Source: an uncultured Acidobacteriota bacterium
Lineage (GTDB): Bacteria > Acidobacteriota > Thermoanaerobaculia > UBA5066 > Gp7-AA6
Reading direction: 5' to 3'
Length of the DNA stretch: 64,000 nucleotides
Assembly: GCA_963837495.1 (NCBI GenBank)
Contig: CAWINF010000003.1
Location: 398,784-462,783, forward strand
Positions within the stretch are counted from its first letter, which is position 1, and each line of letters starts with the position of its first letter. The notes beneath the pieces were generated by a model that ran no database searches, had not been told where the DNA came from, and saw only the letters and a list, made by a program, of their open reading frames with translations. Positions 13,079 through 30,807 of this stretch are shown here, piece after piece. The translations under genes were made by a program, and so were the position numbers.

Positions 13079-13149
13079 CAGAAAAGAGAATGCGCCGAGC
13101 CAAGGCCAATGCCAGCGACCGTTCACGCATCCGATTCTAGGCCACGGTC

Positions 13150-13616
13150 CTCGGCTCATGGAAGCCAGCCGTGTCCGGACACGGCTCGTGGAGAGATCTC
13201 GATCGACAGAGGAGAGTTGGTGGCCCCAACGAGACTCGAACCCGTGCCGCGGCCTCCGGGGGGCTCGGGGGGCACCACGTGCCCCCCGCTCATGGAGCCA
13301 GCCGTGTCCGGACACGGCTCGTGAAGAGATCTCGATCGACAGAGGAGAACTGGTGGCCCCAACGGGACTCGAACCCGTGCCGCGGCCTCCGGGGGGCTCG
13401 GGGGGCATCACGTGCCCCCCGCTCATGGAGCCAGCCGTGTCCGGACACGGCTCGTGGAGAGATCTCGATCGACAGAGGAGAACTGGTGGCCCCAACGGGA
13501 CTCGAACCCGTGCCGCGGCCTCCGGGGGGCTCGGGGGGCACCACGTGCCCCCCGCTCATGGAGCCAGCCGTGTTCGGACACGGCTCGTGGAGAGATCTCG
13601 ATCGACAGAGGAGAAC
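13150..13616 (-). repeat. Tandem array of tRNA-Glu-derived units, period 133 bp. Three perfect units start (plus-strand coordinates) at 13218, 13351 and 13484; a partial unit covers 13150-13217.
   Basis: On the minus strand each unit ends with the exact tRNA-Glu T-arm and acceptor 3' strand plus CCA (ggccgcggcacgggttcgagtcccgttggggccacca). This is preceded by two perfect GC hairpins (GGGGGGCAC..GUGCCCCCC and AGCCGUGUCC/GGACACGGCU) and a palindromic GATCGAGATCTC segment. Confidence 0.85.
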
Positions 13617-13691
13617 TGGTGGCCCCAACGGGACTCGAACCCGTGCCGCGGCCTTGAAAGAGCCGTGTCCTAACCACTAGACGATGGGGCC
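13617..13691 (-). tRNA. tRNA-Glu(UUC).
   Basis: Minus strand GGCCCCATCGTCTAGTGGTTAGGACACGGCTCTTTCAAGGCCGCGGCACGGGTTCGAGTCCCGTTGGGGCCACCA. It has a full cloverleaf, anticodon loop CTTTCAA and an encoded CCA. Confidence 0.9.
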
Positions 13692-13854
13692 CGAAAAAAC
13701 GATAGCACGCATGTCATATTGAGCCGAACTGCGAGGGACTCGAACCCGTGCCGCGGCCTCCGGGGGGCTCGGGGGGCCACATGGCCCCCCGCTCAAATCA
13801 GCCAGGCGTGTCGGCTCCGCAGGAGCCGTGTCCTAACCACTAGACGATGGGGCC
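13692..13854 (-). ncRNA. tRNA-Glu-like pseudo-tRNA or structured RNA unit (163 nt).
   Basis: Intact tRNA-Glu 5' half (GGCCCCATCGTCTAGTGGTTAGGACACGGCT). The anticodon loop is replaced by a 7-bp stem with a UGC triloop. A ~60-nt GC-hairpin insertion and a T-arm follow, but the acceptor 3' strand is non-complementary. It ends GCGUGCUAUCGUUUUUUCG. Confidence 0.5.
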
Positions 13855-14018
13855 CGAAAAAACGATAGCACGCATGTCATATTGAGCCGAACTGCGAGGG
13901 ACTCGAACCCGTGCCGCGGCCTCCGGGGGGCTCGGGGGGCCACATGGCCCCCCGCTCAAATCGGCCAGCCGTGTCGGCCGCGTAGCGGCCGTGTCCTAAC
14001 CACCTAGACGATGGGGCC
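13855..14018 (-). ncRNA. Second tRNA-Glu-like pseudo-unit (164 nt), paralogous to 13692-13854.
   Basis: Same architecture. The replaced anticodon arm differs by compensatory pairs (CGGCUCC-UGC-GGAGCCG versus CGGCCGC-UAC-GCGGCCG). Confidence 0.5.
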
Positions 14019-14110
14019 TCGGACCGAGAAAAACGATAGCACGGGGATCTCATTCCGCGCCGAGCAGCGCGGGACTCGAACCGGTACCGCCGGCGCCGGT
14101 GAGCCCCTCA
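14019..14110 (-). repeat. Partial third tRNA-like unit (T-arm-like GGTTCGAGTCC, CUAUCGUUUUUC spacer and GC hairpins).
   Basis: Contains gcgggactcgaaccggtacc and the perfect palindrome ccctctcccgccgggagaggg. Confidence 0.4.
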
Positions 14111-14146
14111 CCCCGACCCTCTCCCGCCGGGAGAGGGAGAAGGGCG

Positions 14147-14179
14147 CTAAAAACAGAAGTGCCGGCTTGCGCCGGCACT
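14147..14179 (-). terminator. Rho-independent terminator for the small secreted-protein gene.
   Basis: Minus-strand hairpin AGUGCCGGC-GCAA-GCCGGCACU followed by UCUGUUUUU, about 25 nt after the stop at 14204. Confidence 0.7.
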
Positions 14180-14203
14180 CGATGATCCGTGATCGGCGGA
14201 GTC

Positions 14204-14515
14204 TTACTTCGAGGGGGCCTTGGTGGGCTCGGGCTTGGCGGGCTCGGTTTCCATCTTCGTCTCGGTGCTCTTCTTGGTGGTGGTCTTGCCCTTCTTGGTC
14301 ACCTTCTTGTGGGCCTTCTTCTTGGTGGTCATCTTCTTGCCCGGTTCCTTGGTCTCAGTCGTGGTCGAGGTGCTCGTGGACTGGGAGCCGGTGACCGGGT
14401 TCGTCGACTTCTTCGACTCCGTCGAGGACTTGGTTTCCGTGGTCTGCGCGAAGACGCCGGTCGGGAAGGCCAGCGCCACCGCCAGGGCCACGAACTTCAA
14501 CAGGGACTTCTTCAT
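14204..14515 (-). CDS. Small secreted Ser/Thr/Lys-rich low-complexity protein (103 aa).
   Basis: Strong RBS AAAGGAGAG 7 nt upstream of the ATG. Signal peptide MKKSLLKFVALAVALAFPTGVFA and a downstream terminator. Confidence 0.75.
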   Translation of the reverse strand: MKKSLLKFVALAVALAFPTGVFAQTTETKSSTESKKSTNPVTGSQSTSTSTTTETKEPGKKMTTKKKAHKKVTKKGKTTTKKSTETKMETEPAKPEPTKAPSK

Positions 14516-14723
14516 CTTTTCTCTCCTTTTCGGCGCGGGGCACTACGCACCGCGTCACTCACAGGCAGGGACTCTAGATCTCTGCGAGTGAACCCAACAT
14601 GAACGCGGGAACGGCCTTTCGAGGAGTCTCGAACTCATTGAGACTATTGGTCTTGTGCCGCAGCGCTCCAGCGTCCAGAGAGGAACTTTCAGACTCGGCT
14701 TCGCCTCCTCAAACCTGTGAGAT

Positions 14724-17700
14724 TCACGCGCCGGCGGCGCTGCCGGGACCGGCAAGCCTGCCCCGGGGATCCAGAAAGGAGTAGAGGGCGGGCAGCACGA
14801 GAAGAACGAGAGGGCCGGACAGGAGGAATCCTCCGATGACGGCGATCGCGAGCGGTTGCTGGAGCTGCGCGCCCTCGCCCAGCGCGAACGCCAGCGGGGC
14901 GAGAGCGAAGACACTCGCAAGGACCGTCATCGCGACGGGCCGCAGCCGCCGGCGAGCCGCGGCTCTCCACGCCTGCGCGGGAACGAGGCCCTCGCGCAGG
15001 GACTTCCGCGCCTCATGAATGACGAAGATGGCGTTCTCGCCGACGATTCCGACCATCATGATCGCGCCGACGAAGCTGGAGATGTTGAGCGTCATTCCCG
15101 TCAGCAGGAGGAGGCCGAAGACACCGGCCAGGACCGCCAGCGCGATAACACTCGTGACCAGCGGAGCCCTCCAATCCCCGAACTCGAAGAGAAGGACGAC
15201 GGAGACCAGGACGAGTCCCGCGATCAACACGAGCAGGAGTCCCTTGAACGAGGCCTGTTGCTGCTCGTAGATCCCTCCGAATCGGATCTCCATGCCCGGA
15301 GGCAGGTCGAGCCTCGTCTGGAGCGCGGTGCGGATCTCCGAGATGGCGCCTCCCAGGTCACGGCCGGAGAGGCGGGCGGTCACTCCGAGGAACGTCTTCA
15401 AATTCTCGCGGTCGATCTCCGCCTCGGGGGGACCGGTCGAGAGCGTGGCGATGGTCGAGAGCGGCACGAGCGCGCCCGAAGGAGTCCGGATCTTGAGCTG
15501 GTCCAGGCCCGCCGGAGCATTCTCGAAGACGCGAATGTCATAGACGCGTTCGCCGACACGGAGTGTTCCGGCGACGGTTCCCGTGACGGCCGGCTCCACG
15601 ACGGCATGAAGGTCTTCCGTCGTGAGCCCGAACCGCGACGCCTCTTCTCCCGCGGCGGAGCCAGACGTCGCGGCTTCGCGAAAGCGAGGCCGAACGTTCA
15701 GGGCGGGGCCGGCGATGACGACTCCATCGAAGACGTCCTCAACGCCTCGGACCGAGGAGATGATCCGGGCGGCTTCGCGCGCCTTGCGCTGGAGCAGCGC
15801 CTGGTCCTCTCCGAAGATCTTGATGTCGATGGGCTGAGGCGCGCCACCGGTCAGGTCTCCGATGTTGTCCTCGATGAGCTGCCCGAAGTCTGTGCGGAGG
15901 GCGGGCTCGACCGCCGCCAGCCGCGCGCGAAGGTCGTCGATGATGGCGCCGGCGGGGCGCCGGGCCTTACGAGGCTTCAACTTGATCACGTAGTCGCCGC
16001 GGTTGGGCTCCGTGATGAAGAAGCCGAGCTGGGTGCCGGTGCGGCGGGAGTAACTCTGGACGTCGGGAAGCGATCGGATGATCTTCTCGGCCTCGGAAAG
16101 GATCGTGTCCGTATCGGTTAACGAGGTTCCGGGCGGGGTCCAGTAGTCGAGGATGATCGAGCCCTCGTCCATGGAAGGGAGGAAGTCGCTTCCGATCATC
16201 CGGGAAAGGACATATCCGCCGGCCCACAGAAGGAGAGCGGCCGCGATCGGAAGAACCGGACGCCGAAGAAACAGACCGAGGGCGCGGTCGAGGCGCCGGC
16301 CCCGAGGAGGTCCCTGCCTCTTTGCCGGCGGGAGCGAGGAACCGGCCGCCAGCGGGACCGCGAACACCGCCAGGAAGAATGAAACGACGAGCGCCAGGGC
16401 CATCGTCAGCGCGAGAGGCTTGAAGAACGCGCCGGCGACGCCGGTCAGCAGCGCGAAAGGGACGAAGATGATGATCGTCGAGAGGCTCGATCCGACGAGC
16501 GCCGGCAGCAGGTCTGCCACGCCGCGCCCGGCCGGGTCGTCCGCGCGCTCCTCCCGTTTCCTGTGGATGTTCTCGACGACGACGATCGCGTCGTCGGCGA
16601 TGAGGCCAAGGGCGGCGGCGATCCCTCCGAGAGTCATGAGATTGATGGTCTGTCCCACCGCACCGAGCAGGAGCAACACGACCGCGACGCTCACGGGGAT
16701 GGCGGCGACGGCGATCAGGGTCAGCCGCAGGCTTCGAAGGAACAACAGCAGGACGATTGCGGCCAGAACGACGCCGATGAGGATCGCGTCGCGGGCGCCG
16801 CCGACCGAGCGGGAAACAAACGTCGCCTGGTCGTAGAAAGGCGTCCAGGTGACGTCGCGGGGAATGAGCCCCGGTTTCTCCTTGAAGATTGCCGCGACCC
16901 CCCGCGCGATGTCCACCGTGTTGGCCGCGGGCTGGCGGATCAGGTTGACGAGGACGGCCGGACGTCCGTCGGCCGTCGTCCGGATGTAGGAAACGGCGTC
17001 GCCCGCCGCAACCGTTCCGAGCTCCCCGACGTGCGCCGGGACACCGCCTCCCGGGACCGGCACCGGGATTTGCGCCACTGCGTCGGTTCCAGCGGCGCGT
17101 CCATCCACGAGCGCAAGGTAGAGCTCGTGGTTGGCCTCGGTCAGCCCCGCGGAGAGAATCTGGTTGTTCTTCCTGACCGCCGTGACGACGTCGGCGGAAG
17201 AGAGTCGCCGGCCGGCGAGCGCCTGCGAGTCCAGGCGAACCTGAAACTCGCGCTTGCGGCCTCCCTGGATCTGGACCTCGGAGACACCGGGAATGCGGAT
17301 GAGCTCGGGCTTCAGCACGAACTCGGCCAGGACAAGCAGCTCGGCCTGGCTGCGGGTCGGCGAGGAGAGCGCGTAGCCCAGGATCGGGAAGATCGCGGTG
17401 TTCATCCACTCGACGTCCATTCTCGCGCCGGCGGGAAGGTCCGGTCGGATCCGCTCGACTTCCGCCTGGACGCGCTGAAGGGCCGTCTGCATGTCGGTCC
17501 CCCAGGCAAAGTTGGCGGAGATCTCCGTTGATCCGCGGGATGTCGTCGAGAGGACCCGGAGGATTCCGGGCACGCGAAGAATCGCTTCCTCAAGCGGGCG
17601 CGTCACCGTCGGCATCATCCAGGCGGCCGGCTCTTCGCCGACGTCGGCGATCACTTTCACGAGCGGAAACGTGACCGAAGGGAAGATCGAGGACGGCAGG

Positions 17701-17792
17701 CGCAGGGCCGCGAAGACGCCTCCGGCGACGAGGATCGCGATCAGGAGGAAAACCGCGGCGGGGCGCTCGCGGGACAGGCGCAGGAGGCTCAC
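14724..17792 (-). CDS. RND-family efflux pump inner-membrane transporter (AcrB/CzcA superfamily, 1022 aa).
   Basis: 12-TM RND architecture with two large periplasmic loops and the conserved TM4 motif GLIADDAIVVVENI. Last gene of a tolC-MFP-RND operon. Confidence 0.9.
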   Translation of the reverse strand: MSLLRLSRERPAAVFLLIAILVAGGVFAALRLPSSIFPSVTFPLVKVIADVGEEPAAWMMPTVTRPLEEAILRVPGILRVLSTTSRGSTEISANFAWGTDMQTALQRVQAEVERIRPDLPAGARMDVEWMNTAIFPILGYALSSPTRSQAELLVLAEFVLKPELIRIPGVSEVQIQGGRKREFQVRLDSQALAGRRLSSADVVTAVRKNNQILSAGLTEANHELYLALVDGRAAGTDAVAQIPVPVPGGGVPAHVGELGTVAAGDAVSYIRTTADGRPAVLVNLIRQPAANTVDIARGVAAIFKEKPGLIPRDVTWTPFYDQATFVSRSVGGARDAILIGVVLAAIVLLLFLRSLRLTLIAVAAIPVSVAVVLLLLGAVGQTINLMTLGGIAAALGLIADDAIVVVENIHRKREERADDPAGRGVADLLPALVGSSLSTIIIFVPFALLTGVAGAFFKPLALTMALALVVSFFLAVFAVPLAAGSSLPPAKRQGPPRGRRLDRALGLFLRRPVLPIAAALLLWAGGYVLSRMIGSDFLPSMDEGSIILDYWTPPGTSLTDTDTILSEAEKIIRSLPDVQSYSRRTGTQLGFFITEPNRGDYVIKLKPRKARRPAGAIIDDLRARLAAVEPALRTDFGQLIEDNIGDLTGGAPQPIDIKIFGEDQALLQRKAREAARIISSVRGVEDVFDGVVIAGPALNVRPRFREAATSGSAAGEEASRFGLTTEDLHAVVEPAVTGTVAGTLRVGERVYDIRVFENAPAGLDQLKIRTPSGALVPLSTIATLSTGPPEAEIDRENLKTFLGVTARLSGRDLGGAISEIRTALQTRLDLPPGMEIRFGGIYEQQQASFKGLLLVLIAGLVLVSVVLLFEFGDWRAPLVTSVIALAVLAGVFGLLLLTGMTLNISSFVGAIMMVGIVGENAIFVIHEARKSLREGLVPAQAWRAAARRRLRPVAMTVLASVFALAPLAFALGEGAQLQQPLAIAVIGGFLLSGPLVLLVLPALYSFLDPRGRLAGPGSAAGA

Positions 17793-17796
17793 GCGG

Positions 17797-18774
17797 TCAC
17801 GGCTGCGCTGCGACGAGCTTGCCTTCGGGCAGTCCGACCAGGCCCGAGACGATCACCGCCTGGCCCGGCGCGAGGGGCGGCGAGACGATTTCCGTCCGTC
17901 CTCCCTCTACGACTCCCGTCCGCACGTCGACCCAATGGGCCCGGTTCTGCGTGACGAGCGCGACCCGGGCGACGCCGGTCACGTCGTCTCGGAGAACGGC
18001 CGCGTCGGGCACGACGGTTGTGTCGGGGTGCTCTCCCACGAGGACCCGCGCCGTGCCCACGATCCCCAGAGGCAGCCGGCGGGCCGGCTCGGGCAGATCG
18101 ACACGGACGGAAGCCGTGGAATCGGCGGGGTTCGCCGCGGGAAGCGCCGAGTGGACGGTTCCGGAGATCGCGCGCGTTTCTCCCGCGATCTGGATGGAAG
18201 CCTTCTGCCCGGGCCGGATCCGCGGAAGTTCGGACTGGGCGATGTCGGCCAGGAACACGGTGGACCCGGCGTCGTTGATCGTCAGGATTTCCTGATCTTC
18301 GGAGACGCGATCTCCGGCGCTTGCCGCATGGGACAGGACCATTCCGTCCGAGGACGCCGTCAGCGGCTTGCGGACCAGGTTCTTTTCGGCCAGCGCGACG
18401 GCCCGGCCGGCGTCGCGCCGCTCGGCTTCGCTGGCCGCCTGCCGCAGCATCTCCCGCGCCCCCGAGAGGGCGGCCTCGCTGTCGCGGGCAACGATCGTCC
18501 CGACCTTCTGCCCGCGGCGCACGCGGTCGCCGTCGAAGACGGAGAGCTCCGTCAGGGTTCCGGCGAACGGCGCCCGCAGCTTCTGCTGCGCCAGAGCGGC
18601 CGTCTTGCCCGGTCCCGAGACGAAGAGGGACAAGGACGCCTTCTCGGCCAGTGCGACCCGGACGGGCGTGGGGAGCGCGGGCGTGTTATCCGGGCGGGCC
18701 GCTTCACCCGGCGCGTCGCCCTTCCGGCATCCGACGACGGCGAGAAGCAGGAGCGCAACGGCTTCGCGCTTCAC
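17797..18774 (-). CDS. RND efflux periplasmic adaptor (membrane fusion protein), lipoprotein.
   Basis: Lipobox LLLAVVGC plus HlyD-like beta-barrel and lipoyl regions. 4-nt gap to the RND gene. Confidence 0.85.
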   Translation of the reverse strand: MKREAVALLLLAVVGCRKGDAPGEAARPDNTPALPTPVRVALAEKASLSLFVSGPGKTAALAQQKLRAPFAGTLTELSVFDGDRVRRGQKVGTIVARDSEAALSGAREMLRQAASEAERRDAGRAVALAEKNLVRKPLTASSDGMVLSHAASAGDRVSEDQEILTINDAGSTVFLADIAQSELPRIRPGQKASIQIAGETRAISGTVHSALPAANPADSTASVRVDLPEPARRLPLGIVGTARVLVGEHPDTTVVPDAAVLRDDVTGVARVALVTQNRAHWVDVRTGVVEGGRTEIVSPPLAPGQAVIVSGLVGLPEGKLVAAQP

Positions 18775-20114
18775 GGCGAGCCCCAGCGATCCCCGATCGC
18801 CCGAGCGATCCGGTAGCGCGCGACCGCGTCGGAGAAGCGCACGGCGGCGTCCACCGCGGAAGAGTAGGCGTCGAGGACCTCAAGCGACGTCGCGGCGCCC
18901 CCGCGGTACCGGCTTTCCGCTTCCAGGAAGGCGTCGCGCGCGGCCGGACTCGCGCGGGAGAGGAGGTCGACCTCTCGTCCGAGCGTTTCGATCGCGGAAC
19001 GGGCCTGCGCCCATTTCAAACGGGCGTCCCGCCGCGCGACCTCGACCTTCTGGCGGGCCTGCCTCAGGGCGAGGTCCGCCTGCGCCACGCGCGCGCGCAT
19101 GGCGCCGAAGTCGAAGACCGGCCAGGAGAGCGAGAGCATGAAGGAATAGCCCGCGTCGCGGCGGACACGGTCGAAGAACGTGGCATTGGGATCGCGTTGC
19201 CTCAGGTCGAGCGGGACGAGGCGCGAGGTATCCGATCCCCAGAAGCCGAGGTCCGCCGAGAGATCGAGGTGAGGCCGGCGTTCGGCGCGAGCGCCCGAGA
19301 GGGCCGCGTCCGCCGCGCTCGCTTCGGCGCGGGCGGCGGAAACCTCCGGCACCTCCTCCCAGGCGCCCGCTGACGCTGCCGGAACGGCGGCCGGCACGGG
19401 AAGCGGCGCGATCTCGAGGAGAGCGCGCGGTTCTCGCCCCATCAGGTCGTTCAGCTCCAGGCGGGCGTCGTCCGCGCGCTTCTCGGCTTCCAGGACGCTC
19501 GCCTGCTCGGACGCGAAGCGAACGTCCGTCTTCATGAGGTCCGAGGCGACGGCCTGCCCCGAGGCCTGGCGGCTCTTGAGCGACGTGCGATAGCTCTCCA
19601 GCCGCGCGATGCCCTCGCGCCGCGCGGCGATCTCTTCCCGCGCGGCGAGAAGCTCGTTGTAGCGGCTGATCACCTCGAGCTCGAGATCTTTTTCTTCGAT
19701 GCGGTAGCGCCCCCGCGCCGCGTCGAGCTCGGCGTCGGCCCTCGCAACGGCGGCGCGGCGAGCCCCTCCGTCGTAGACAGGCTGCCGCCCGACGGCCTGC
19801 AAGCGAAATTCGCCCAGATTGGTCACGACGGGGTCGTACCCGGAAGGGGGCGCATACACGAAGTCCCCCTCCACGGCGACCTTGAGCCAGCGCTCGGCCC
19901 GCGCCTCGGTCCGCTTCTCCCGGGCGATCGCGACGTCGAAGGCGGGAAGCGGGAGCCGCGCGTTGGAGGCCCGCGCCTCCCGCACGGCCTCTTCGAGCGT
20001 CACCGGCGCCTGAGCCTCGGCGGCGCATGCGATGGCCGCGCCGAGCAGGAGAGCCAGGCGGCCGGCGGCGGCGAACGTGTCCGCGGAGCGCGATCGTTTG
20101 TTCACCGGACGCAT
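18771..20114 (-). CDS. TolC-like outer membrane efflux protein.
   Basis: Signal peptide and a two-repeat OEP architecture. 4-nt overlap with the MFP gene. Confidence 0.85.
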   Translation of the reverse strand: MRPVNKRSRSADTFAAAGRLALLLGAAIACAAEAQAPVTLEEAVREARASNARLPLPAFDVAIAREKRTEARAERWLKVAVEGDFVYAPPSGYDPVVTNLGEFRLQAVGRQPVYDGGARRAAVARADAELDAARGRYRIEEKDLELEVISRYNELLAAREEIAARREGIARLESYRTSLKSRQASGQAVASDLMKTDVRFASEQASVLEAEKRADDARLELNDLMGREPRALLEIAPLPVPAAVPAASAGAWEEVPEVSAARAEASAADAALSGARAERRPHLDLSADLGFWGSDTSRLVPLDLRQRDPNATFFDRVRRDAGYSFMLSLSWPVFDFGAMRARVAQADLALRQARQKVEVARRDARLKWAQARSAIETLGREVDLLSRASPAARDAFLEAESRYRGGAATSLEVLDAYSSAVDAAVRFSDAVARYRIARAIGDRWGSP

Positions 20115-20126
20115 TCTAAGGAATGC
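20111..20126. promoter_or_regulatory. Perfect 16-bp palindrome GCATTCTAAGGAATGC spanning the tolC-like start codon.
   Basis: The ATG of the 18771..20114 gene lies inside the right arm of the palindrome. It is a candidate operator or start-codon-sequestering hairpin. Confidence 0.4.
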
Positions 20127-20193
20127 GGCCCATCGCGGCTCGAATCTCTTGCATCCGGAACGTTCCGTGGACGCGGGAACGCTCAGGCCCGCG

Positions 20194-20346
20194 TCAGTCC
20201 CCTTTCGAAGGCGCGCTCTTCAGACTCGCGTAGAGGGAGTCGTCGGCGATCCGAAGGCCGTGGGCGCGCAGCTGCTGGATCACCGGGTTGACTTCGTCGG
20301 CGACGAGGACGAAGTTCGCCGGTCGTCGCGACGCGCCTTCCGACAC
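20194..20346 (-). CDS. Possible small ORF (50 aa) between the chrB-like and tolC-like genes.
   Basis: GTG start; reads MSEGASRRPANFVLVADEVNPVIQQLRAHGLRIADDSLYASLKSAPSKGD. GC3 bias is consistent with coding. It is below the ORF-track length cut-off and has no recognisable domain. Confidence 0.3.
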   Translation of the reverse strand: MSEGASRRPANFVLVADEVNPVIQQLRAHGLRIADDSLYASLKSAPSKGD

Positions 20347-20350
20347 TGCT

Positions 20351-21379
20351 TCATGATTTTCTCCGCTTTCCTGGAGCCGGTCTCCTCCGGCGGAACGACT
20401 CGTGGAGTCCGTCGAAAAGCGTGATTCCTCGTTCCAGCCGCTCTTCGTCGCTCGGGCAGGCGTTCACGATACCCGCAAGAAGCTGCTCGATCCCGCGAGT
20501 CTCCGGGCGTCCGAACTTCCCGTCCCTCAGGTCGATCTCGTGGACGATCTCCGCGACGGGACCGAGAGCGGGATCGGTGAGCCCGGAGCGGCGGCGGAGC
20601 GTCTCGAACGTGCAGCGGTCGGCCTCGTGGGTGAAGGCGCCGCCGACCATGTCGAAAGTTATCTCGCCGGCGCGCGGAATCTCTCGCCTGGGATCGATGA
20701 ACCGGAAGCGCGCCCGTCTGTCCACGAACCGGCGGATGAGCCAGGCCGTGGCGATCCGGTCCACCTTGATGCCCTTGCGGGTCACCCAGGTCTTGCGGGA
20801 GAGCCGGGTTGTGGATGGCCTCCCCGCGGAAACAGATTCCCGCGCCGCGGCGCGGCGCTCGAGCGTCGCGAGCAGCCGCTCGGCGGCCTCGCGTCCCCTG
20901 GCGCGGAAGAAGTCGATCCGGGAGATTTCGTCGAGGCGTCTGCGCCAGCGGGCCAGACGCGCGGGAAGGTCTTCTTCGAGAGGACCGGCGCCGCTCGCGC
21001 GCTTCGCCCTCCGGCCCCGTTCGCGGAGGGACGCGGCGAGCGCGGCGTAGTCGGCGTCCCGATCCCGGCGGAACCGGTCGACAAGCGCGGCGTTCGTCTC
21101 TTTTCCGAGGAAGTCGGCCTCGCAGACGTAGGCCTCGCCGCCTCCCGCGATCGCCTCCTCCCCGATCCACTGGAAGTCCTCCAGGCAATCTTCCAGGCGG
21201 GGCAGGACGTAAACGGCGTTCTTGAGCGCCACGGCTCCCGCCTTGGCCAGGCGCTGCCGGATCTTCGCGCGCAGGTAGAGCGGCTTCGGCGGGAGCTGGT
21301 GGATCAGCAGGTACCAGCGAGGCGCCCCCTCGCGGCGGCGCCGGCGCCGAGGCTTCGGGCGAGTTCGGTCTTTCATCAC
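20351..21379 (-). CDS. ChrB-like chromate-resistance regulator family protein.
   Basis: N-terminal WYLLIHQLPPKP..LRAKIRQRLAKAGAVALKNAVYVLP matches the ChrB N-domain. C-terminal VDRIATAWLIRRFVD matches the Chrome_Resist domain. Confidence 0.7.
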   Translation of the reverse strand: MMKDRTRPKPRRRRRREGAPRWYLLIHQLPPKPLYLRAKIRQRLAKAGAVALKNAVYVLPRLEDCLEDFQWIGEEAIAGGGEAYVCEADFLGKETNAALVDRFRRDRDADYAALAASLRERGRRAKRASGAGPLEEDLPARLARWRRRLDEISRIDFFRARGREAAERLLATLERRAAARESVSAGRPSTTRLSRKTWVTRKGIKVDRIATAWLIRRFVDRRARFRFIDPRREIPRAGEITFDMVGGAFTHEADRCTFETLRRRSGLTDPALGPVAEIVHEIDLRDGKFGRPETRGIEQLLAGIVNACPSDEERLERGITLFDGLHESFRRRRPAPGKRRKS

Positions 21380-21586
21380 GCCCCATATAGCACTTGATTT
21401 ACAGCTATAGCAATTGCTTTAGGATCGCGATGGAGGGGAGACGCAATGGGACTCTCGGCGGCGGCCTTCCTGCTCCTGGGGGCGCGATCCGCCGAAAGGG
21501 AGGCTGCGCCTCATTTCGCGATACGTTCCGGCAGGCGGCTCGCTCTCCTTCTGAGACGCCGGAAGCCATCCCGTTAGAATGAGGCC

Positions 21587-23617
21587 ATGGGCGATGTGAC
21601 ACCGGCACAGGTCCTCCCCTCCGTCTGCCCGCTCGATTGCCCGGACGCCTGCAGTCTCGAGGTCCGAGTCGAAGACGGTCGGGCCGTCGAGGTCGGAGGG
21701 AGCCGCGTCAATCCCGTCACGGCGGGCTTCATCTGCGCGAAGGTCCGCCGCTTTCCCGAGCACGTCCACGGGCCGCGCCGCGTCCGCCATCCGGGCTTGA
21801 GGGAAGGGCGGAAGGGGGAAGGCCGGTTCCGCCGCGTCTCGTGGGACGAGGCCCTGGATCTCGTCGCTTCCCGCATGAAGGACCTGACGGCGCGGGGAGA
21901 AGGGGAGCGCATTCTTCCTTTCTGCTACGGAGGCTCGAACGGATACCTCTCGCAGAACACGTCGGACGCTCGCCTCTTCAACCGGCTCGGCGCCTCCCGG
22001 CTCGCTCGCACCCTCTGCGCGGCCCCGTCGGGGCGCGCCGCGGCGGGCCTCTATGGCGCGATGCCGGGAACCGCCCTGCAGGACTACAGGCACTCGAAGC
22101 TCGTCGTGCTCTGGGGTGCGAATCCTTCCGTCTCCGGCATCCACCTCGTGCCCTACGTGCTCGAAGCTCAGAGCCGCGGAGCGCTCCTCGCCGTCGTCGA
22201 TCCGCGCCGGACGCGCCTGGCCGAGAGGGCGGATCTGCACGTCGCGCCCCACCCGGGCACGGACCTTCCCCTGGCCCTCGCGGTCATCCGGTGGCTCTTC
22301 GAGAATGGCCGCGCGGACGAAGCCTTCCTCTCAACTCACGCAGTCGGGGCCGACGATCTGCGCCGGAGGGCCGCTCCCTGGACGCTCGACGCCGCGGCGC
22401 GGACGACTCGCGTCCCCGCGGAGCGGATCGAGGCTCTCGCCCGGATCTACGCGGAATCGAGCCCCGCGGCGATCCGTTGCGGCTGGGGGCTCGAACGCAA
22501 CCGCAACGGCGGCTCGGCAGTCGCCGCCGTTCTGGCTCTGCCCGCGGTGGCCGGGAAGTTCGGTGTGCGCGGCGGCGGATACACGATGAGCAACTCCAGG
22601 ACCTGGGACCTCGACGCGCTGGCGGCGGCGGGCGAGTTGCGCGCGCCCTCGACGCGCGAGGTCAACATGAATCTTCTCGGCGAGACTCTCGTCAGCCCCA
22701 ACGGATCTCCCGTCGATCTCCTCTTCGTCTACAACTGCAACCCGCTCGCGACGGTCCCCAACCAGGAGAAGGTGCGCGCGGGACTCTCGCGCGAGGATCT
22801 CTTCACCGTCGTCTTCGATCCCGTGATGACGGACACGGCGCTCTATGCCGACGTCGTGCTCCCCGCGACGACCTTTCTCGAGAGAGACGAGATGTCCCGC
22901 GGATACGGCGCGATGGTGCTTCAGGAGGGAAGGCCCGTCATACCGCCGGTCGGCGAGTCGCGGCCCAACCACGAGGTGTTCGCCGAGCTGACGCGCCGCG
23001 CCGGTCTCTCACGTCCGGACGACCCGGAGTCGGCGAAGGAGATGAAGCAGGCGATCCTGCGAACCAGCCCTTCGGGCGAGGCGATCCGGCGAGCCCTCGA
23101 TTCGCAAGGGGTCGCTTTTCCGGGCGGCAATCCCGCGCCCGTCCAGTTCGTGGACACCTTCCCGCTCACGGCCGACGGCAGGATTCACCTTGTGCCCGAG
23201 GCCCTGGACCGCGAGGCTCCCGACGGTCTCTACGCCTATCGCCCCGATCCCGAGAGCTCCCGATATCCGCTCGCGCTGATCTCGCCGGCCAGCGACCGCA
23301 CGATCAGCTCGACCCTCGGGGAGCTGCACGAAGAGCAGGTTCCGCTCGAGATGGCTCCGCGGGACGCGGAAGCCCGAGGCGTCGGCGACGGGGATCGGGT
23401 CCGGGTCTTCAACGGCTTCGGAGAGGTTCGATGCCTCTCCCGCAGGAACCCCGCTCTGCGCGAGGGGGTGGTCCTGCTCCCCAAGGGTCTCTGGCGACAC
23501 AACACGCTGTCGGGAACGGGCGCCACGGCGCTGGCGCCCGACACTCTGACGGACCTCGGCGCCGGCGCCTGCTTCAACGACGCCCGAGTCGAGGTCGAGC
23601 GTTTGCCCGGGCAATGA
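21587..23617 (+). CDS. Molybdopterin (bis-MGD) oxidoreductase, MopB superfamily, single-subunit cytoplasmic type.
   Basis: N-terminal Fe-S motif CPLDCPDACSL..FICAKV, followed by MopB catalytic and MGD-binding domains and a C-terminal molybdopterin dinucleotide-binding barrel. Confidence 0.85.
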   Translation: MGDVTPAQVLPSVCPLDCPDACSLEVRVEDGRAVEVGGSRVNPVTAGFICAKVRRFPEHVHGPRRVRHPGLREGRKGEGRFRRVSWDEALDLVASRMKDLTARGEGERILPFCYGGSNGYLSQNTSDARLFNRLGASRLARTLCAAPSGRAAAGLYGAMPGTALQDYRHSKLVVLWGANPSVSGIHLVPYVLEAQSRGALLAVVDPRRTRLAERADLHVAPHPGTDLPLALAVIRWLFENGRADEAFLSTHAVGADDLRRRAAPWTLDAAARTTRVPAERIEALARIYAESSPAAIRCGWGLERNRNGGSAVAAVLALPAVAGKFGVRGGGYTMSNSRTWDLDALAAAGELRAPSTREVNMNLLGETLVSPNGSPVDLLFVYNCNPLATVPNQEKVRAGLSREDLFTVVFDPVMTDTALYADVVLPATTFLERDEMSRGYGAMVLQEGRPVIPPVGESRPNHEVFAELTRRAGLSRPDDPESAKEMKQAILRTSPSGEAIRRALDSQGVAFPGGNPAPVQFVDTFPLTADGRIHLVPEALDREAPDGLYAYRPDPESSRYPLALISPASDRTISSTLGELHEEQVPLEMAPRDAEARGVGDGDRVRVFNGFGEVRCLSRRNPALREGVVLLPKGLWRHNTLSGTGATALAPDTLTDLGAGACFNDARVEVERLPGQ

Positions 23618-24531
23618 CCGTCGGCGCGGCCGCCGATGCGGAGCCCGCGGAGAAGGAGAGAAAGACGCGCAAGCGCCGTCTGCGGGGCGCGATTGCCGTC
23701 ACTGTCGCGATCCTGCTCGTCGAGGTCGCGGGAGGACTCGTCGCGCACAGCCTCGCGCTCCTGGCGGACGCGGCGCACATGTTCGCCGACATCGCGGCTC
23801 TCCTTCTGGCCTATGCCGGCCTGACGCTCGCGGGCCGCGCGCCGACGGGAAGGCACACCTTCGGCCTCTACCGGGCCGAGATCCTGGCGGCCTTCGTCAA
23901 CGCCCAGATCCTCCTCCTCGTGGCCCTTTACGTCGGCTACGAAGCGGTCCGGCGTTTCCGGAATCCGGTCGAGATCCACACCGGCCTCATGTTCGGGATC
24001 GCCGCCGCGGCTCTGGGCGGCAACGTCCTTTCGGCCCTGCTCCTCTCCAGGGGCAGCGCCACGAGCCTGAACATGCGCGCCGCGTATCTCGAGGTCGTCA
24101 CCGACATGCTCGGCTCGCTCGCCGTGATCGCGGCCGCCATCACGATCCCTCTGACGGGTTGGCGCTGGCTGGATGCGGCGGTCTCCGCCGGCGTCGCTCT
24201 CTTCATCCTGCCGCGCGCAGCCCGACTGCTCCGGCAGTCCGCCCACATCCTGCTCGAAGGGTCTCCCGGCGAGATCGACCTTCTCTCCCTGCGGCAGGAG
24301 ATCCTGGCTCTGCCGGGGGTCGAAGAGCTTCACGACCTGCACTGCTGGACTCTGACGTCCGGCCTGCACTCGGCAAGCGTCCACATCCGCGCGTCGTCGG
24401 AGAGCAGCCGCGTCGAGGTGCTGGCGGCGGTCCAGAAATTGCTCCGGGAAGAGGCCGGGGTAGACCATGCCACGATCCAACTGGAATGGGGGTCCGAGAT
24501 GACGTGCGCCTCGAGCCGGAGGCACGCATGA
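23614..24531 (+). CDS. Cation diffusion facilitator (CzcD-like Zn/Co/Cd efflux).
   Basis: Six TM segments with HSLALLADAAHMFAD and the ZT_dimer C-domain. ATGA overlap with the upstream gene. The listed 964-aa ORF is a frame artefact; only this C-terminal part is real. Confidence 0.85.
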   Translation: MTVGAAADAEPAEKERKTRKRRLRGAIAVTVAILLVEVAGGLVAHSLALLADAAHMFADIAALLLAYAGLTLAGRAPTGRHTFGLYRAEILAAFVNAQILLLVALYVGYEAVRRFRNPVEIHTGLMFGIAAAALGGNVLSALLLSRGSATSLNMRAAYLEVVTDMLGSLAVIAAAITIPLTGWRWLDAAVSAGVALFILPRAARLLRQSAHILLEGSPGEIDLLSLRQEILALPGVEELHDLHCWTLTSGLHSASVHIRASSESSRVEVLAAVQKLLREEAGVDHATIQLEWGSEMTCASSRRHA

Positions 24532-24541
24532 AGGAGTCAGC

Positions 24542-25174
24542 ATGAGAGTCATTGCCGGGATTCTGATAGGGCTGTTGCTCGTTTTCGTCGCGGTCGGAAT
24601 CATCGTCTGGACCGGGTCCTACAACGTTGCGGCGACGAACCCTCCGGGCCGGTTTGAAAAGAAGTTCGCCGCGTTTGCCCTGGACCGTTCCATCCAGAAG
24701 CGGGCGCCGGTCCGGACCAACCCGTTTTCGAAGCCGGAGGACATCCGGGCCGGCCTCGCGCACTACAAGGAGAACTGTCTGGACTGCCACGGGGCGCCCG
24801 GCGTCGAGGAGTCCGAGTTCGGCCAGGGCTTGAACCCCCCCGCGCCCGATCTCACGCTCCCCTCCGTGCAGAGGATGTACGACGGCGAGCTCTTCTGGAT
24901 CGTTTCCAACGGGATCCGCATGACCGGCATGCCCGCGTTTTCCCCAACTCACAAGGAAGAGGAAATCTGGAAGATCGCGGCTTTCGTCCGCCACCTGCCC
25001 GAGGTCACCAGGGAAGAGCAGCAGATCCTGAGGGCCGGCCACGGAGAAGAGGCGGGCCATCACGAGGCGGCCGAGTCCGGAGGCAAGCCGGAGGGAAAAG
25101 AGGAAGAGAACCCCGCTGCCGGAGAAACTCCTTCGCCGACGCGCCCGCCGGGAACCGAGCCCCACAAGGATTGA
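24542..25174 (+). CDS. Membrane-anchored monoheme c-type cytochrome.
   Basis: N-terminal TM, CLDCHG heme-binding motif and a Met ligand region (MTGMPAF). Acidic, His-rich C-terminal tail. RBS AAGGAG. Confidence 0.75.
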   Translation: MRVIAGILIGLLLVFVAVGIIVWTGSYNVAATNPPGRFEKKFAAFALDRSIQKRAPVRTNPFSKPEDIRAGLAHYKENCLDCHGAPGVEESEFGQGLNPPAPDLTLPSVQRMYDGELFWIVSNGIRMTGMPAFSPTHKEEEIWKIAAFVRHLPEVTREEQQILRAGHGEEAGHHEAAESGGKPEGKEEENPAAGETPSPTRPPGTEPHKD

Positions 25175-25521
25175 GGGCTCCGAGGCTATCTGGAGGTTCT
25201 GATCCTGATGCTCGCCGCCGCCACCTGCGCGGCCCGAGGGCATGGCCCGAGACCGGGTTTCCGTTCAGGAGGCAACGCTCGGCTTCGTTCGCAACGTCCC
25301 AGACTGCGCCTTCGCGACAGAGCGACGGCAGGTCTTCCTGTCAAGGCCAGCCGTCGCGCGCCGACGAGGGAGGCGACCCCGACGCCGGGGCGGCTTGTCA
25401 GGCATAGTCCACTGACTCCGCCTCACTTCGCACCAGCAGGGAAACTCGATTCATTCGTGACGGTGCCTCTCATTGTAGGGATCTAGCCGCTCGGCCCGCC
25501 GCTCATCCGCTGGCACCCGGC

Positions 25522-26385
25522 TCAGCCTCCGACGAGGTTGAGGATCCTCTGAAGGATCTGGATCGCGCCCTGCCAGTCCTGCCACACTTCGGGGAAGGCC
25601 CTGCTCCGGCGCATGCGCCGGTCCGTCCGCCGGGCGCTGTCCAGGAGACGGCTGGCCTCCGCCCGGATCTGCCGGCGGTCGCTCGCCCCCGAATCGACGG
25701 TCCGGCGGAAGGCCACGACCTGGTCGTGGAAGTCGCGGATGGACTGGAAGAACTCCCGGCGATAGGGGCCCCGGCCGGCCACGCGTTGCGCAAGCCCGTG
25801 CGCCCGGCCCGCCCGGTCCTCGAGCTCGCGCGCGAGACCCGCGAGCTCTCCGGATTCGCGACGACCCGGCGGGTTGCGTCTCTCGCCATACTCGTCGCGG
25901 CCCGGGCCGGCGGGAGCGAGATCGATCACGCCTTCTCCGGATTGACTCACTCTCATCATCCGGCGCAGGATCTCCACGACCTCGTTCCAGTCACTCAAGG
26001 TGTTGTCGTCCGCGAAGCGGGAACGGCGGACCCGCTCCTGCACATCCTGCGCGCTCCGCAACAGTCCCCGCAGGTCATCGTCCACCGGCCAGGGCGCCCC
26101 CCTGTAGTTGGCCATGCGCTCGTCGAATCTCCTCGCGCTTCGCTCGAATTCGGCGATCGAGGCGAGCAGGCTCCTGTCGCGCCGGGAGATCCAGGATTCT
26201 CGCCGCTGTGCCTGGTCGTTGGCATGACCGGCGCGTTCGTCCAGGCTCCGGGAGAGCTGGCGCAGCTCCCGATACGCCGGCTCGGAAAGCGCCGCGGCGG
26301 CCCGCTGAGCCTCCAGCGCCGAGGCCGCAATCATCCAGGAAGCCGCGCACGCGATCGAAAACAGGGCGAGACTTCGATTTGTCAT
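25522..26385 (-). CDS. Secreted alpha-helical protein with two internally homologous halves (hypothetical).
   Basis: Signal peptide; two ~75-aa repeats (ERAGHANDQAQRR... and DRAGRAHGLAQRV...). Arg/Glu-rich. Could be a periplasmic Spy/CpxP/ZraP-like helical chaperone, but no diagnostic motif is seen. Confidence 0.55.
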   Translation of the reverse strand: MTNRSLALFSIACAASWMIAASALEAQRAAAALSEPAYRELRQLSRSLDERAGHANDQAQRRESWISRRDRSLLASIAEFERSARRFDERMANYRGAPWPVDDDLRGLLRSAQDVQERVRRSRFADDNTLSDWNEVVEILRRMMRVSQSGEGVIDLAPAGPGRDEYGERRNPPGRRESGELAGLARELEDRAGRAHGLAQRVAGRGPYRREFFQSIRDFHDQVVAFRRTVDSGASDRRQIRAEASRLLDSARRTDRRMRRSRAFPEVWQDWQGAIQILQRILNLVGG

Positions 26386-26389
26386 CTTC

Positions 26390-27160
26390 TCAGTGTACGG
26401 CTTTCTTGCGGAATTGGCGGAGGCCGGCGATCAGGAACGCCGCGTCGAAGCCGATCAGGGCGCCGAGGATCGCCGGAATGGAGAGATGCGGAAACTGGGG
26501 CACGAGAGCGCTGCGCAGACCCTCGCTGGAATACACGACGGGATTGATGAGGACGGCCTTCTGCAGGAAAGAGAACCGCGCCAGGGCGCTCCACGGGTAG
26601 TACGTACAGCCGAAGAAAATCATGGGGGCGAGAACGAGCGAGAACATCAGACCGATCTGCGTCTGCCCGATCGAGCATCCCAGCGTCAATCCGAGCGAGG
26701 AAGAGAGGAACGCGATCAGCAGGCAGAGCGCCGCGAAGAGGAGAGGGTGGGGGAGCCGCAGGTCCACTCCCTTCCCCATGACGAGCCAGGCGGAAGGGAG
26801 GACGACGAGACCGGCGACGAGCGCCTGGATCATGCCGGCCAGGATCTTCTCCACGGCCACCCACTCGATCTCGATGGGAGCGAGCAGGCGGTCCTCGATT
26901 TCCTTGCTGAACTGGAACTCGGAGATGAGCGGCATGGCGACGGCCTGGATGCCGGAGAGAAACATCGAGAGCGCCATGATGCCCGGCAAGAGCAGGCTCT
27001 TGTATTGCAGCGGCATGTAGCCGCTCGCCGTCATCACGCGCCCGAAGATGAAGACGAGGAGCATCGGCTGCAGGAGCGTCTGGAGCAGGAGGGGGATGAA
27101 GTTGCGCCTCGCGACGCGCGCGTCGCGCCCGAGCAGAGCGAGGAAGGTCTTCGCGTTCAT
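26390..27160 (-). CDS. ABC-2 type transporter permease.
   Basis: Six TM segments with the ABC-2 signature region. Start is ATG 27160. The listed 318-aa ORF is extended artificially through the MITE copy. Confidence 0.8.
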   Translation of the reverse strand: MNAKTFLALLGRDARVARRNFIPLLLQTLLQPMLLVFIFGRVMTASGYMPLQYKSLLLPGIMALSMFLSGIQAVAMPLISEFQFSKEIEDRLLAPIEIEWVAVEKILAGMIQALVAGLVVLPSAWLVMGKGVDLRLPHPLLFAALCLLIAFLSSSLGLTLGCSIGQTQIGLMFSLVLAPMIFFGCTYYPWSALARFSFLQKAVLINPVVYSSEGLRSALVPQFPHLSIPAILGALIGFDAAFLIAGLRQFRKKAVH

Positions 27161-30715: not shown

Positions 30716-30721
30716 GAGATG

Positions 30722-30749: not shown

Positions 30750-30807
30750 AGGCGAAGCAGCGGTTGAATGTCCTGGTGGCCACGCCTGACGCCTGACGGT
30801 TGACGGC

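Follow-up and report, generated by a model that had tools for sequence, protein, structure and literature searches.

The 64-kb stretch of DNA analyzed here (the window) comes from an uncultured soil member of the Thermoanaerobaculia (Acidobacteriota); there, on the core chromosome, the locus is probably a mosaic of 3 independent units compacted by gene loss. The locus is not a single new detoxification machine; its genes are real, and gene loss, which explains the compact layout, has forced 3 separate units together. Unit 1 would be the remnant of an Arthrobacter-type chromate-resistance determinant, in which chrB has stayed intact; chrA, chrL (DUF1529), a ChrB_C-only gene, and a chrK-like beta-propeller gene appear to have been deleted, and recognizable scars flank chrB. 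Unit 2 would be an OEP-MFP-RND efflux operon, and unit 3 a MopB-CDF-cytochrome c operon with its own conserved −10 box, predicted to operate independently. The core-chromosome setting is evident from prfB, lnt, lipA, and the heme genes hemY/H/N and hemA/C/B/L nearby. All 7 genes of the first-pass annotation lie where it had placed them, the RND, MFP, OEP, and ChrB genes on the minus strand and the MopB, CDF, and cytochrome c genes on the plus strand, and open reading frames (ORFs) and profile matches bear out the identities it had given them (Table 1).

Table 1. Genes, gene remnants, and candidate regulatory sites of the locus, in window coordinates.
Feature	Position	Strand	Details
RND inner-membrane permease, 1022 aa	14724..17792	−	ACR_tran 655 bits, 2e-196, full length; last gene of the operon
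MFP periplasmic adaptor, 325 aa	17797..18774	−	TIGR01730 RND_mfp 126 bits vs 94.9; HlyD_3, HlyD_D23
OEP/TolC outer-membrane factor, 447 aa	18771..20114	−	OEP 158 bits; alternative GTG start at 20105
Inverted repeat	20107..20130		10-nt arms, 90% complementary, 4-nt spacer
TAGAAT −10-like box	20113..20118	−	7 nt before GTG 20105; putative own promoter of the pump operon
Scar: 3′ end of deleted ChrB_C-only gene	20193..20243	−	78–82% DNA identity to gene 3′ ends of L002, L005
Small ORF, 50 aa	20194..20346	−	Chimera: chrL fragment + chrB_C 3′ end
Scar: internal fragment of deleted chrL (DUF1529, LppY/LpqO)	20244..20344	−	DNA alignment to relatives' DUF1529 genes
chrB	20351..21379	−	342 aa from GTG; 341 aa from ATG 21376; intact, ChrB_C and ChrB_N matches
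AT-rich direct repeat TATAGCA[C/A]TTG[A/C]TTTA	21386..21421		Two copies 20 bp apart, 7–42 nt upstream of chrB start
Scar: 3′ end of deleted chrK-like secreted beta-propeller gene	21484..21532	+	Aligns with relatives' gene end
TAGAAT −10 box	21575..21580	+	6 nt before MopB ATG; predicted, conserved
MopB (bis-MGD type), 676 aa	21587..23617	+	Fe4S4, Molybdopterin, Molydop_binding domains
CDF cation exporter, 305 aa	23614..24531	+	Cation_efflux + ZT_dimer domains
Membrane-anchored monoheme cytochrome c, 210 aa	24542..25174	+	Cytochrome_CBB3 54 bits

The window ChrB is a canonical full-length ChrB. Profile searches found both the ChrB_C domain (PF09828, formerly Chrome_Resist; 147.7 bits against a cut-off of 25, E = 3e-43, positions 1–131/132) and ChrB_N (30.6 bits against a cut-off of 23). 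The Chrome_Resist assignment made in the first pass was right and, because the domain is present, its absence, which would have counted against the annotation, does not arise. The protein is 48% identical to a Rhizobium plasmid ChrB encoded directly upstream of chrA; the locus of the closest plasmid homologue, at that same identity, reads chrB-chrA, with a divergent SOD and ChrB_C gene. Its AF2 model has a mean pLDDT of 84.6. Residues R200, R207, H250, and H279 are invariant across 39 homologues and, when mapped by spacing onto the Ochrobactrum tritici numbering, match R180, R187, H229, and also H258, which O. tritici ChrB needs for its response to chromate (PMC3817168). Through these conserved Arg and His residues, ChrB would sense chromate.

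The AT-rich direct repeat upstream of chrB occurs nowhere else in the window, and a promoter-like TTTACA-16-TAGGAT overlaps it. Among the relatives' loci (designated L001 onward), it abuts the chrB 5′ end in L002–L009 and L028 and, as a slightly divergent copy, in L013, and it stays there whatever gene faces chrB, for example an M20 peptidase or a propeller gene. It occupies −7 to −42 relative to the chrB start, in agreement with −4 to −37 for the ChrB site of O. tritici (PMC3817168). The repeat is thus likely to be the ChrB operator and the chrB promoter, with ChrB predicted to bind the direct repeats that overlap its own promoter. The palindrome proposed as operator in the first pass does exist (Table 1), among 33 inverted repeats counted over 1.6 kb; it covers the OEP start codon (ATG) and a TAGAAT box, and is absent from L001, L002, L005, and L006, and this want of conservation leaves the operator role unsupported.

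No ChrA homologue was found in any ORF of the 64-kb window, in agreement with the first pass, and chrB is not encoded next to chrA anywhere in it. In Thermoanaerobaculia MAG relatives with 60–88% identical ChrB, a chrK-like propeller gene diverges from a chrB-chrL-...-chrB_C-chrA-OEP-MFP-RND array, and in those with 67–88% identity, DUF1529, ChrB_C, ChrA, and accessory genes lie between chrB and the orthologous OEP-MFP-RND genes; gene calls in these loci were GC3-based, and are crude and in places wrong. ChrA is present in L002, L003, L005, L008, and L013, and only a 57-aa fragment of it is left in L001, the closest relative. Traces of such genes persist in the window. In the scar next to the pump operon, DSLYASLKSAPSK aligns with DSLYAHLKHVPSK of ChrB_C-like genes, and the chrL scar shows 80–84% DNA identity over 76–101 nt to the interiors of the DUF1529 genes of L001, L002, L028, and L008; the relatives' DUF1529 gene is in turn 39% identical to Arthrobacter FB24 ChrL (E = 7e-56). 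The small possible ORF reported in the first pass is present and is not a gene: it is a chimeric remnant of chrL and chrB_C. On the other side of chrB, the third scar aligns with the propeller gene end ...DPKRGRLRIFRDTFR in L005, L006, and L028. L008 and L028 have the whole propeller gene (340 aa), and L002, L005, and L006 have only pieces of it; the gene bears a weak resemblance to FB24 ChrK of the YncE family (E = 1e-7, 21% identity).

Because the relatives hold chrA, chrL, chrB_C, and a chrK-like gene here and the window shows the scars of their deletion, the idea that ChrB instead partners the RND pump and the molybdoenzyme in one oxyanion module is unsupported and was not borne out. Nor is the block conserved, a point on which the first-pass annotation had staked that idea: the units occur apart in other genomes. 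By itself, without chrA, the locus would be unable to expel cytoplasmic chromate. "Decay" may overstate the case, as chrB is intact with all key residues, and chrA may lie elsewhere on the 1.34-Mb contig.

The pump operon is compact, with the OEP gene overlapping the MFP start by 4 nt. The RND permease reached the cut-off of no NCBIfam model, and its closest solved chains are ZneA (307 bits), CusA (263 bits), and AcrB (206 bits). HME-RND pumps carry the TM4 signature DFG..DGA..VEN. The permease, with ALGLIADDAIVVVEN in TM4 and 458 bits against a TIGR00914 cut-off of 701, was not assigned to this class (CzcA/CusA) by score or signature, yet its closest solved chain is ZneA, and it may still handle substrates of either kind. 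Orthologues of 56–87% identity were found in 80 metagenome loci, always with OEP-MFP upstream, and most of these loci lack chr genes, including approximately 19 that have at least 3 kb of upstream sequence. In the nearest relatives, the operon lies directly downstream of chrA, and one genome has a tight chrB-chrA-OEP-MFP-RND operon; in L013, chrB, chrA, and the OEP gene are joined by 8-nt overlaps and followed by MFP and RND matches on the same strand. The −10-like box of the pump operon, found as TACAAT-N7-GTG at the same site in L005 and L006, may possibly give a leaderless mRNA. We found no terminator-like site between chrB and the OEP gene; transcription from the chrB promoter could run through this terminator-free 236-bp scar into the pump operon, which would also be served by its own −10 box.

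The same arrangement can be read without decay, with chrB and OEP-MFP-RND forming a streamlined, working periplasmic efflux system that responds to chromate or another oxyanion and for which chrA is elsewhere or dispensable. We think this unlikely. It is true that chrB and the 3 pump genes are intact and full length, that the interval between chrB and the OEP gene lacks a terminator, and that chrA or chrB precedes the pump operon in the nearest relatives as well as in L013, L093, L095, and L139. However, scars of 3 or 4 chr genes flank chrB, L001 with its ChrA fragment represents an intermediate stage, most pump orthologues occur without chr genes, and the pump has its own −10 box; in addition, judging from the sequence and from RND signatures, TM4 contains an AcrB-like DD relay, with nothing pointing to an anion substrate.

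The molybdoenzyme of unit 3 belongs to the MopB superfamily by its 3 Pfam domains and a Cys at the Mo ligand position. Its N-terminus reads C14-x3-C18-x3-C22...C50 and has no Tat motif, which agrees with the cytoplasmic location given in the first pass. In an alignment with FdhF, C144 falls on the Cys/Sec Mo ligand, and the next residue is Ala rather than His; judged by this alignment, MopB is Cys-ligated. None of the NCBIfam models reached its cut-off. For the best of them, Fdh-alpha (TIGR01591), MopB scored 221 bits against 666, and with Ala after C144 an FdhF-type formate dehydrogenase was rejected. The FdhF/YdeP family (TIGR01701, 62 bits against a cut-off of 582) and a YjgC-like protein (YjgC chains score 133 bits and have about 260 extra N-terminal residues) were rejected as well, and the YdeP/YjgC-like placement suggested in the first pass was not upheld. 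MopB relatives are encoded in at least 585 species, and the orthologues mostly stand alone in housekeeping contexts with no conserved partner. L001, L005, L006, and L028 all keep the −10 box before MopB, as do L008, L013, and L018 and three loci where MopB stands alone (L030, L039, and L055); in L002 the box is TACAAT and the Shine-Dalgarno-like GAGG is missing. The box probably represents MopB's own promoter, giving a leaderless mRNA, and lies approximately 155 bp from the AT-rich repeat.

The CDF start overlaps the MopB stop as ATGA, confirming the translational coupling noted in the first pass. The transport site in the membrane consists of HxxxD in TM2 and ExxxD in TM5 and is invariant in 19 orthologues. 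Zn-type CDFs have an HD-HD site, with HxxxD in TM5; with ExxxD there and 227 bits against the cut-off of 408 of the ZitB model (NF002923), the protein was not assigned to the ZitB/CzcD Zn type. The cytochrome gene is preceded by an AGGAG Shine-Dalgarno sequence, and its product, with an N-terminal TM helix and a His/Glu-rich tail, is a class I c-type cytochrome by CLDCH, the distal Met in MTGMP, and its match to PF13442 (54 bits against 27). Among 945 cytochrome homologues found, those of 58–63% identity are still encoded downstream of MopB-CDF. Of 80 species loci, only 15 have a CDF gene behind MopB; the remaining 64 that could be assessed encode no CDF, cytochrome c, ChrA, or ChrB. The MopB-CDF-cytochrome c triad is confined to one acidobacterial subclade, with or without chr genes, and we infer that MopB in this subclade gained two additions, a CDF with an atypical HD/ED site and a membrane-anchored cytochrome c.

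The triad might alternatively be a metal-cation homeostasis operon, serving, for example, Fe, Mn, or Zn export together with periplasmic redox handling, with MopB a mere passenger. MopB stands alone in at least 64 of the 80 species, L090 retains the cytochrome though its MopB is broken, and ferrochelatase and other heme genes adjoin the locus; moreover, in some relatives the triad runs on into genes for a small protein of the periplasm and an MFP/RND system of the CusB type (HMBD), and in other relatives a His/Met-rich protein comes next. Against a passenger role, the spacing between MopB and CDF is tight across the subclade, from overlap to 44 nt, and the triad persists down to 58% cytochrome identity, and we regard this alternative as tentative and somewhat unlikely.

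Chr genes lie near the triad in 8 of the 15 species and in none of the 64 MopB-only loci (Fisher p = 2.5e-7); the remaining 7 CDF-linked loci show none within the stretch covered. This co-localization may reflect a functional connection instead of common descent, and it counts in favor of the first-pass model. That model has a single oxyanion module under ChrB control: MopB would reduce chromate or a related oxyanion, leaving a product cation for the CDF to export, the cytochrome would take care of electrons in the periplasm, and the RND pump would empty that compartment. In the window and in L001–L006, chrB and MopB are immediate, divergently oriented neighbors, the MopB and CDF genes overlap, the ExxxD of CDF TM5 is unusual and invariant, and a second promoter-like site, over the candidate operator, points toward MopB, so that ChrB could influence unit 3 by read-through. 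We nevertheless consider the model improbable. The adjacency of chrB and MopB results from decay of the intervening propeller gene; in L009 and L013, an M20 peptidase faces chrB and MopB is 3 to 4 genes off; the triad occurs without chr genes in L010–L012, L014, L016, L020, L029, and L088; and MopB has its own conserved putative promoter, at a distance from the repeat, and orthologues that mostly lack partners. Chromate reduction is not known for any MopB enzyme, nor Cr(III) transport for any CDF. Bolder still, and in our judgment very improbable, is the proposal that the triad is a new trans-envelope redox detoxification system and, separately, that chrB-chrA-OEP-MFP-RND of the relatives includes the first RND pump to carry an oxyanion across the outer membrane. 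Here, MopB could reduce a chromate-like oxyanion and the atypical CDF export the product cation, and ChrB control could reach the triad by read-through from the old chrK promoter; the basis is that the triad is conserved across no fewer than 15 species as well as numerous metagenome contigs, preferentially beside chr genes.

Compared with known systems, MopB shares an N-terminal 4Fe-4S domain, 2 MGD-binding domains, and a Cys at the Mo ligand position with FdhF-type formate dehydrogenases, acetylene hydratase, and PsrA/PhsA, but scores at most 157 bits against any solved chain and reaches no curated family cut-off; unlike formate dehydrogenases, it has no His after the ligand, and also no Tat signal and no partner subunit genes. 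The CDF has the Cation_efflux and ZT_dimer domains and the TM2 HxxxD of CzcD/ZitB exporters, with ZitB as its best named model, and differs from them in scoring below the ZitB cut-off, in the TM5 ExxxD, and in its translational coupling to a molybdoenzyme. As in the TnOtChr chrBACF of O. tritici and the chr operons of Cupriavidus metallidurans, where ChrB regulates chromate efflux, ChrB has two domains with the conserved Arg-rich motif and His, and an AT-rich repeat lies over the promoter immediately before chrB; in contrast to these systems, the window has direct repeats (20-bp spacing) instead of an imperfect inverted repeat, lacks chrA, chrC, and chrF, and has a tripartite RND pump downstream. 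On pMOL28 of C. metallidurans, the chr genes sit beside the cnr RND system as separate plasmid-borne regulons. The window shares with it a resistance region in which a chromate determinant adjoins an RND metal pump; here, however, the context is chromosomal, and the chrBA and pump genes of L013 overlap as one operon. The determinant of Arthrobacter sp. FB24 comprises chrJ, chrK, chrL, a split chrB, and chrA, with ChrK likewise divergent from chrB (PMC2751784). The relatives of the window resemble it in having chrA, ChrL, additional ChrB_C-only genes, and, diverging from chrB, a propeller gene of the YncE type; unlike FB24, the window keeps only fragments of the chrL, chrK-like, and ChrB_C-only genes, has no chrJ, and retains an unsplit chrB.

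Profile searches and an ORF listing placed every gene named in the first-pass annotation where it had been drawn (see table), and the 50-aa ORF and the palindrome that it had pointed out both exist in the sequence of the window, the G+C content of which is 65% to 72%. The interpretation of these genes as a single ChrB-governed oxyanion module was not supported beyond the gene identities, since the constituent units occur apart elsewhere. The locus is probably a decayed chromate determinant, comprising chrB and its candidate operator, which abuts an independent tripartite efflux operon (OEP-MFP-RND) and an independent operon for a cytoplasmic molybdopterin (bis-MGD type) enzyme (MopB), a CDF cation exporter, and a cytochrome c (hereafter, the triad). 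No ORF of the 64-kb window encodes a homologue of the chromate exporter ChrA, and our literature searches found no paper connecting ChrB to a MopB enzyme or a CDF. The arrangements are new, the families are known, and the novelty is modest.

Genes of the efflux operon, chrB, and the MopB-CDF-cytochrome c operon in the window
Product	Coordinates	Strand	Evidence and features
RND permease	14724-17792	-	ORF listing and profile search
MFP	17797-18774	-	ORF listing and profile search
OEP	18771-20114	-	ORF listing and profile search
ChrB	20351-21379	-	ChrB_C 3e-43 across full-length profile; ChrB_N above cut-off
MopB, 676 aa	21587-23617	+	N-terminal C-x3-C-x3-C...C cluster, without Tat motif
CDF	23614-24531	+	ATG overlaps MopB TGA
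Membrane-anchored monoheme cytochrome c	24542-25174	+	AGGAG Shine-Dalgarno in front

The window is core chromosome rather than a mobile island. It carries prfB, lnt, lipA, NfeD/SPFH, tRNA genes, and a large heme-biosynthesis neighbourhood, in which protoporphyrinogen oxidase, hemH, and hemN immediately follow an ABC transporter and hemA, hemC, hemB, and hemL lie farther along. Its right-hand synteny is also kept in relatives. The heme genes occupy 28416-32646 and 39616-45844 (protoporphyrinogen oxidase-like, ferrochelatase, and HemN-like, then GluTR, HemC, and ALAD); a class-III aminotransferase takes the place of hemL, and a Ser/Thr kinase-TPR protein and an aconitase lie between the 2 clusters. 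The prfB gene (10433-11552, plus strand) spans 2 frames, with CTT TGA, the classical site of programmed +1 frameshifting, at 10505-10511, a GGGG Shine-Dalgarno-like run ahead of it, and the PCRF and RF-1 domains in the downstream frame. On the minus strand, a 433-aa protein (12194-13495) whose C-terminal domain is DUF1684 lies between a NUDIX gene and a tRNA pair (13484-13565 and 13617-13691), in which tRNA-Glu(ttc), about 1 kb past the end of the RND gene, adjoins an 82-nt tRNA-Gly(ccc) called by ARAGORN and not reported by Rfam; a tRNA-Lys is located at 60264-60340 (minus strand), at about 60.3 kb. The stretch 48000-58000 has a G+C content of 0.60 to 0.64, compared with about 0.68 elsewhere in the window, and 2 large minus-strand ORFs in this low-G+C stretch (53791-55143 and 55601-57838) have no Pfam match.

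Proteins identical (100%) to ChrB, MopB, and the cytochrome c were found in the protein database on a 1.34-Mb contig, alongside thousands of homologues, those named being from Thermoanaerobaculia or Acidobacteriota. Among the relative loci that we fetched, L001 to L006 (ChrB 67% to 88% identical; L001 being the closest relative) have ChrB divergent from MopB-CDF-cytochrome c, as in the window. On the other side of ChrB, they carry a varying set of genes for DUF1529, 3-keto-disaccharide-hydrolase-like, MacB/FtsX, MFP, 128-aa, and ChrB_C-only proteins and ChrA (PF02417), after which comes an OEP-MFP-RND operon orthologous to that of the window. In L005, 10 nt separate the end of chrA from the OEP gene, whereas L001 retains only a 57-aa ChrA fragment ahead of it. 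A compact chrB-chrA-OEP array with 8-nt overlaps, followed on the same strand by MFP and RND matches, is present in L013 (1-6968), from an Acidobacteriota MAG of GTDB, and chrA directly precedes the same pump in L093 and L095. To our knowledge, fusion of a chromate determinant to a tripartite RND pump has not been described; the joining of chrBA to such a pump is an uncharacterised association.

Remnants of comparable genes flank chrB in the window. The segment 20244-20344 shows 80% to 84% DNA identity to the interior of the DUF1529 gene in 4 relatives, and 20193-20243 aligns with the terminal 3' portion of the ChrB_C-only gene; therefore, the small possible ORF of the first-pass annotation is a chimera of 2 gene fragments. 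On the MopB side, L008 and L028 harbor an intact gene for a 340-aa secreted beta-propeller protein between chrB and MopB, divergent from chrB; this gene is reduced to pieces in L002, L005, and L006, and 21484-21532 of the window aligns with its 3' end. A 62-aa ORF (21394-21582) considered as a small gene was rejected, being the decayed 3' end of the propeller gene. The DUF1529 protein shares 39% identity with ChrL from the chromate determinant of Arthrobacter sp. FB24, and the propeller protein bears a weak resemblance to FB24 ChrK of the YncE family (E 1e-7), which is likewise divergent from chrB (PMC2751784). The scars, together with the lack of ChrA in the window, hence mark chrB as what is left intact of an Arthrobacter-type determinant that has eroded; chrB touches both the pump operon and MopB because the genes between were lost. 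The loci thus document the stepwise erosion of a chromate determinant in uncultured Acidobacteriota, from an intact island through a ChrA fragment to chrB alone, and caution that a tidy "module" in one genome can be a deletion residue visible solely through comparison with relatives.

An alignment scan with MopB across one genome per species matched at least 599 stretches, at least 585 of which encode relatives; among the matches listed, these come from Acidobacteriota above all, and also from Eisenbacteria, Planctomycetota, and Myxococcota; they include the cultured Paraliomyxa miuraensis, in which MopB occurs in stand-alone form only. Using our own ORF, phmmer, and clustering pipeline, we compared the best 80 of the at least 585 loci (55% to 87% identity). 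The CDF gene is next to MopB in only 15 of these 80, with MopB at least approximately 66% identical in all 15 and the cytochrome also present in 12 to 13 of them; cytochrome homologues with 58% to 63% identity still lie downstream of MopB-CDF in L088 and L091. MopB stands alone in the other 64 assessable loci, in lineage-specific housekeeping contexts: its neighbours, named from their sequences, include NDH-2, YggX-like, SerC-like, and large helicase-like proteins, with synteny within lineages only, and no conserved partner was found across the 64 loci. ChrA and/or ChrB are within reach in 8 of the 15 CDF-linked loci, compared with none of the 64 MopB-alone loci (p = 2.5e-7), which leaves a residual possibility that the triad constitutes a novel chromate-linked detoxification system; neither gene is within reach in the remaining 7 CDF-linked loci, the CDF-linked genomes form one clade, and the co-location may reflect inheritance rather than function. 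A metagenome scan with the RND protein yielded OEP-MFP-RND orthologues (56% to 87% identity) in 80 loci, with ChrA upstream in L093, L095, and L139 only, ChrB convergent in L100 and L101, and no chr gene in approximately 19 loci whose upstream sequence extends for 3 kb or more, and the notion of a chr-specific pump was rejected. The chr genes, the RND operon, and the triad are therefore 3 units that all exist independently.

The region beyond the cytochrome c gene is variable. L002, L003, L005, L006, and L088 encode a 109- to 121-aa protein (no Pfam match) and a second, Cus-like OEP-MFP(HMBD)-RND system, both absent from the window. In L001 (4935-6176), L008, L009, L010, L013, L016, L029, L090, and L091, the cytochrome gene is followed by one for a 413- to 490-aa protein that is His/Met-rich in its N-terminal region and lacks a Pfam match, in place of which the window has an unrelated 287-aa ORF (25522-26385, minus strand), also without a Pfam match. 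The triad may be decaying in L090 (5144-7925), where a 216-aa ORF separates 2 MopB fragments of 107 aa and 276 aa and the CDF-sized gene has no Pfam match; the cytochrome c is intact.

Comparison of MopB with NCBIfam and the PDB revealed no named family near cut-off: the best models were Fdh-alpha (221 bits versus a cut-off of 666) and YdeP (62 versus 582), the latter arguing against a YdeP-like identity, and the best PDB matches were FdhF-type chains (approximately 150 bits). C144 occupies the Mo-ligand position in the alignment, and the residue after it is Ala rather than the His of FDHs. MopB is a cytoplasmic molybdoenzyme of wide distribution and without a family; one clade has it coupled to a cytochrome c and an atypical CDF, and its substrate would be worth finding. 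The CDF is closest to ZitB, yet below cut-off, and its transport site, HxxxD in TM2 and ExxxD in TM5, is invariant in 19 orthologues (L001 to L029). In Zn-type CDFs, the TM5 position is occupied by His, which may point to an unusual metal specificity here. The solved structures nearest to the RND permease are ZneA and CusA, yet TM4 carries an AcrB-like DD motif, so no substrate class follows.

A TAGAAT box 6 nt before the MopB ATG (21575-21589) is conserved in relatives and also in stand-alone MopB loci; L002 has TACAAT instead and has lost the Shine-Dalgarno-like GAGG. At the OEP gene, TAGAAT-N7-GTG (20103-20118) is conserved in the form TACAAT-N7-GTG in L005 and L006. The conserved -10 boxes so close to the start suggest leaderless mRNAs for both genes, with MopB having its own promoter. 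Boxes of this kind, 6 to 7 nt before MopB and OEP starts, occur in relatives including L005, L006, L008, L013, L018, L030, L039, and L055; among 47 crude gene calls of the window, no more than 5 have one. That ChrB still drives the pump operon is a residual possibility: no terminator-like site was found between chrB and the OEP gene. The palindrome proposed as an operator (20107-20130) was rejected in that role, as it is not conserved and is formed around the -10 box and start codon. An Rfam scan of 13500-26500, including a search for Moco or other riboswitches in the 200-nt MopB upstream region, returned only a tRNA.

A direct repeat, TATAGCA[C/A]TTG..., is present in 2 copies 20 bp apart at 21386-21421, 7 to 42 nt before the chrB start, without a second occurrence in the window. 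Loci L002 to L009 and L028 carry it at the chrB 5' end, as does L013 in a slightly divergent copy, and it is kept even where the opposite gene encodes an M20 peptidase (L009, L013) or the propeller protein (L008, L028). We know of no ChrB operator in Acidobacteriota, and the repeat represents a conserved candidate for this phylum. The AF2 model of ChrB (pLDDT 84.6), which has no close solved relative, comprises a Cas2/PaaX-middle-like N-domain, long helices, and an alpha/beta C-domain. ChrB shares 48% identity with a plasmid-borne Rhizobium ChrB located directly upstream of chrA, and its R200, R207, H250, and H279 are invariant across 39 homologues, with the same spacing as the residues required for the chromate response of Ochrobactrum tritici ChrB (PMC3817168). 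The position of the repeat likewise parallels the AT-rich O. tritici ChrB site at -37 to -4 (PMC3817168).
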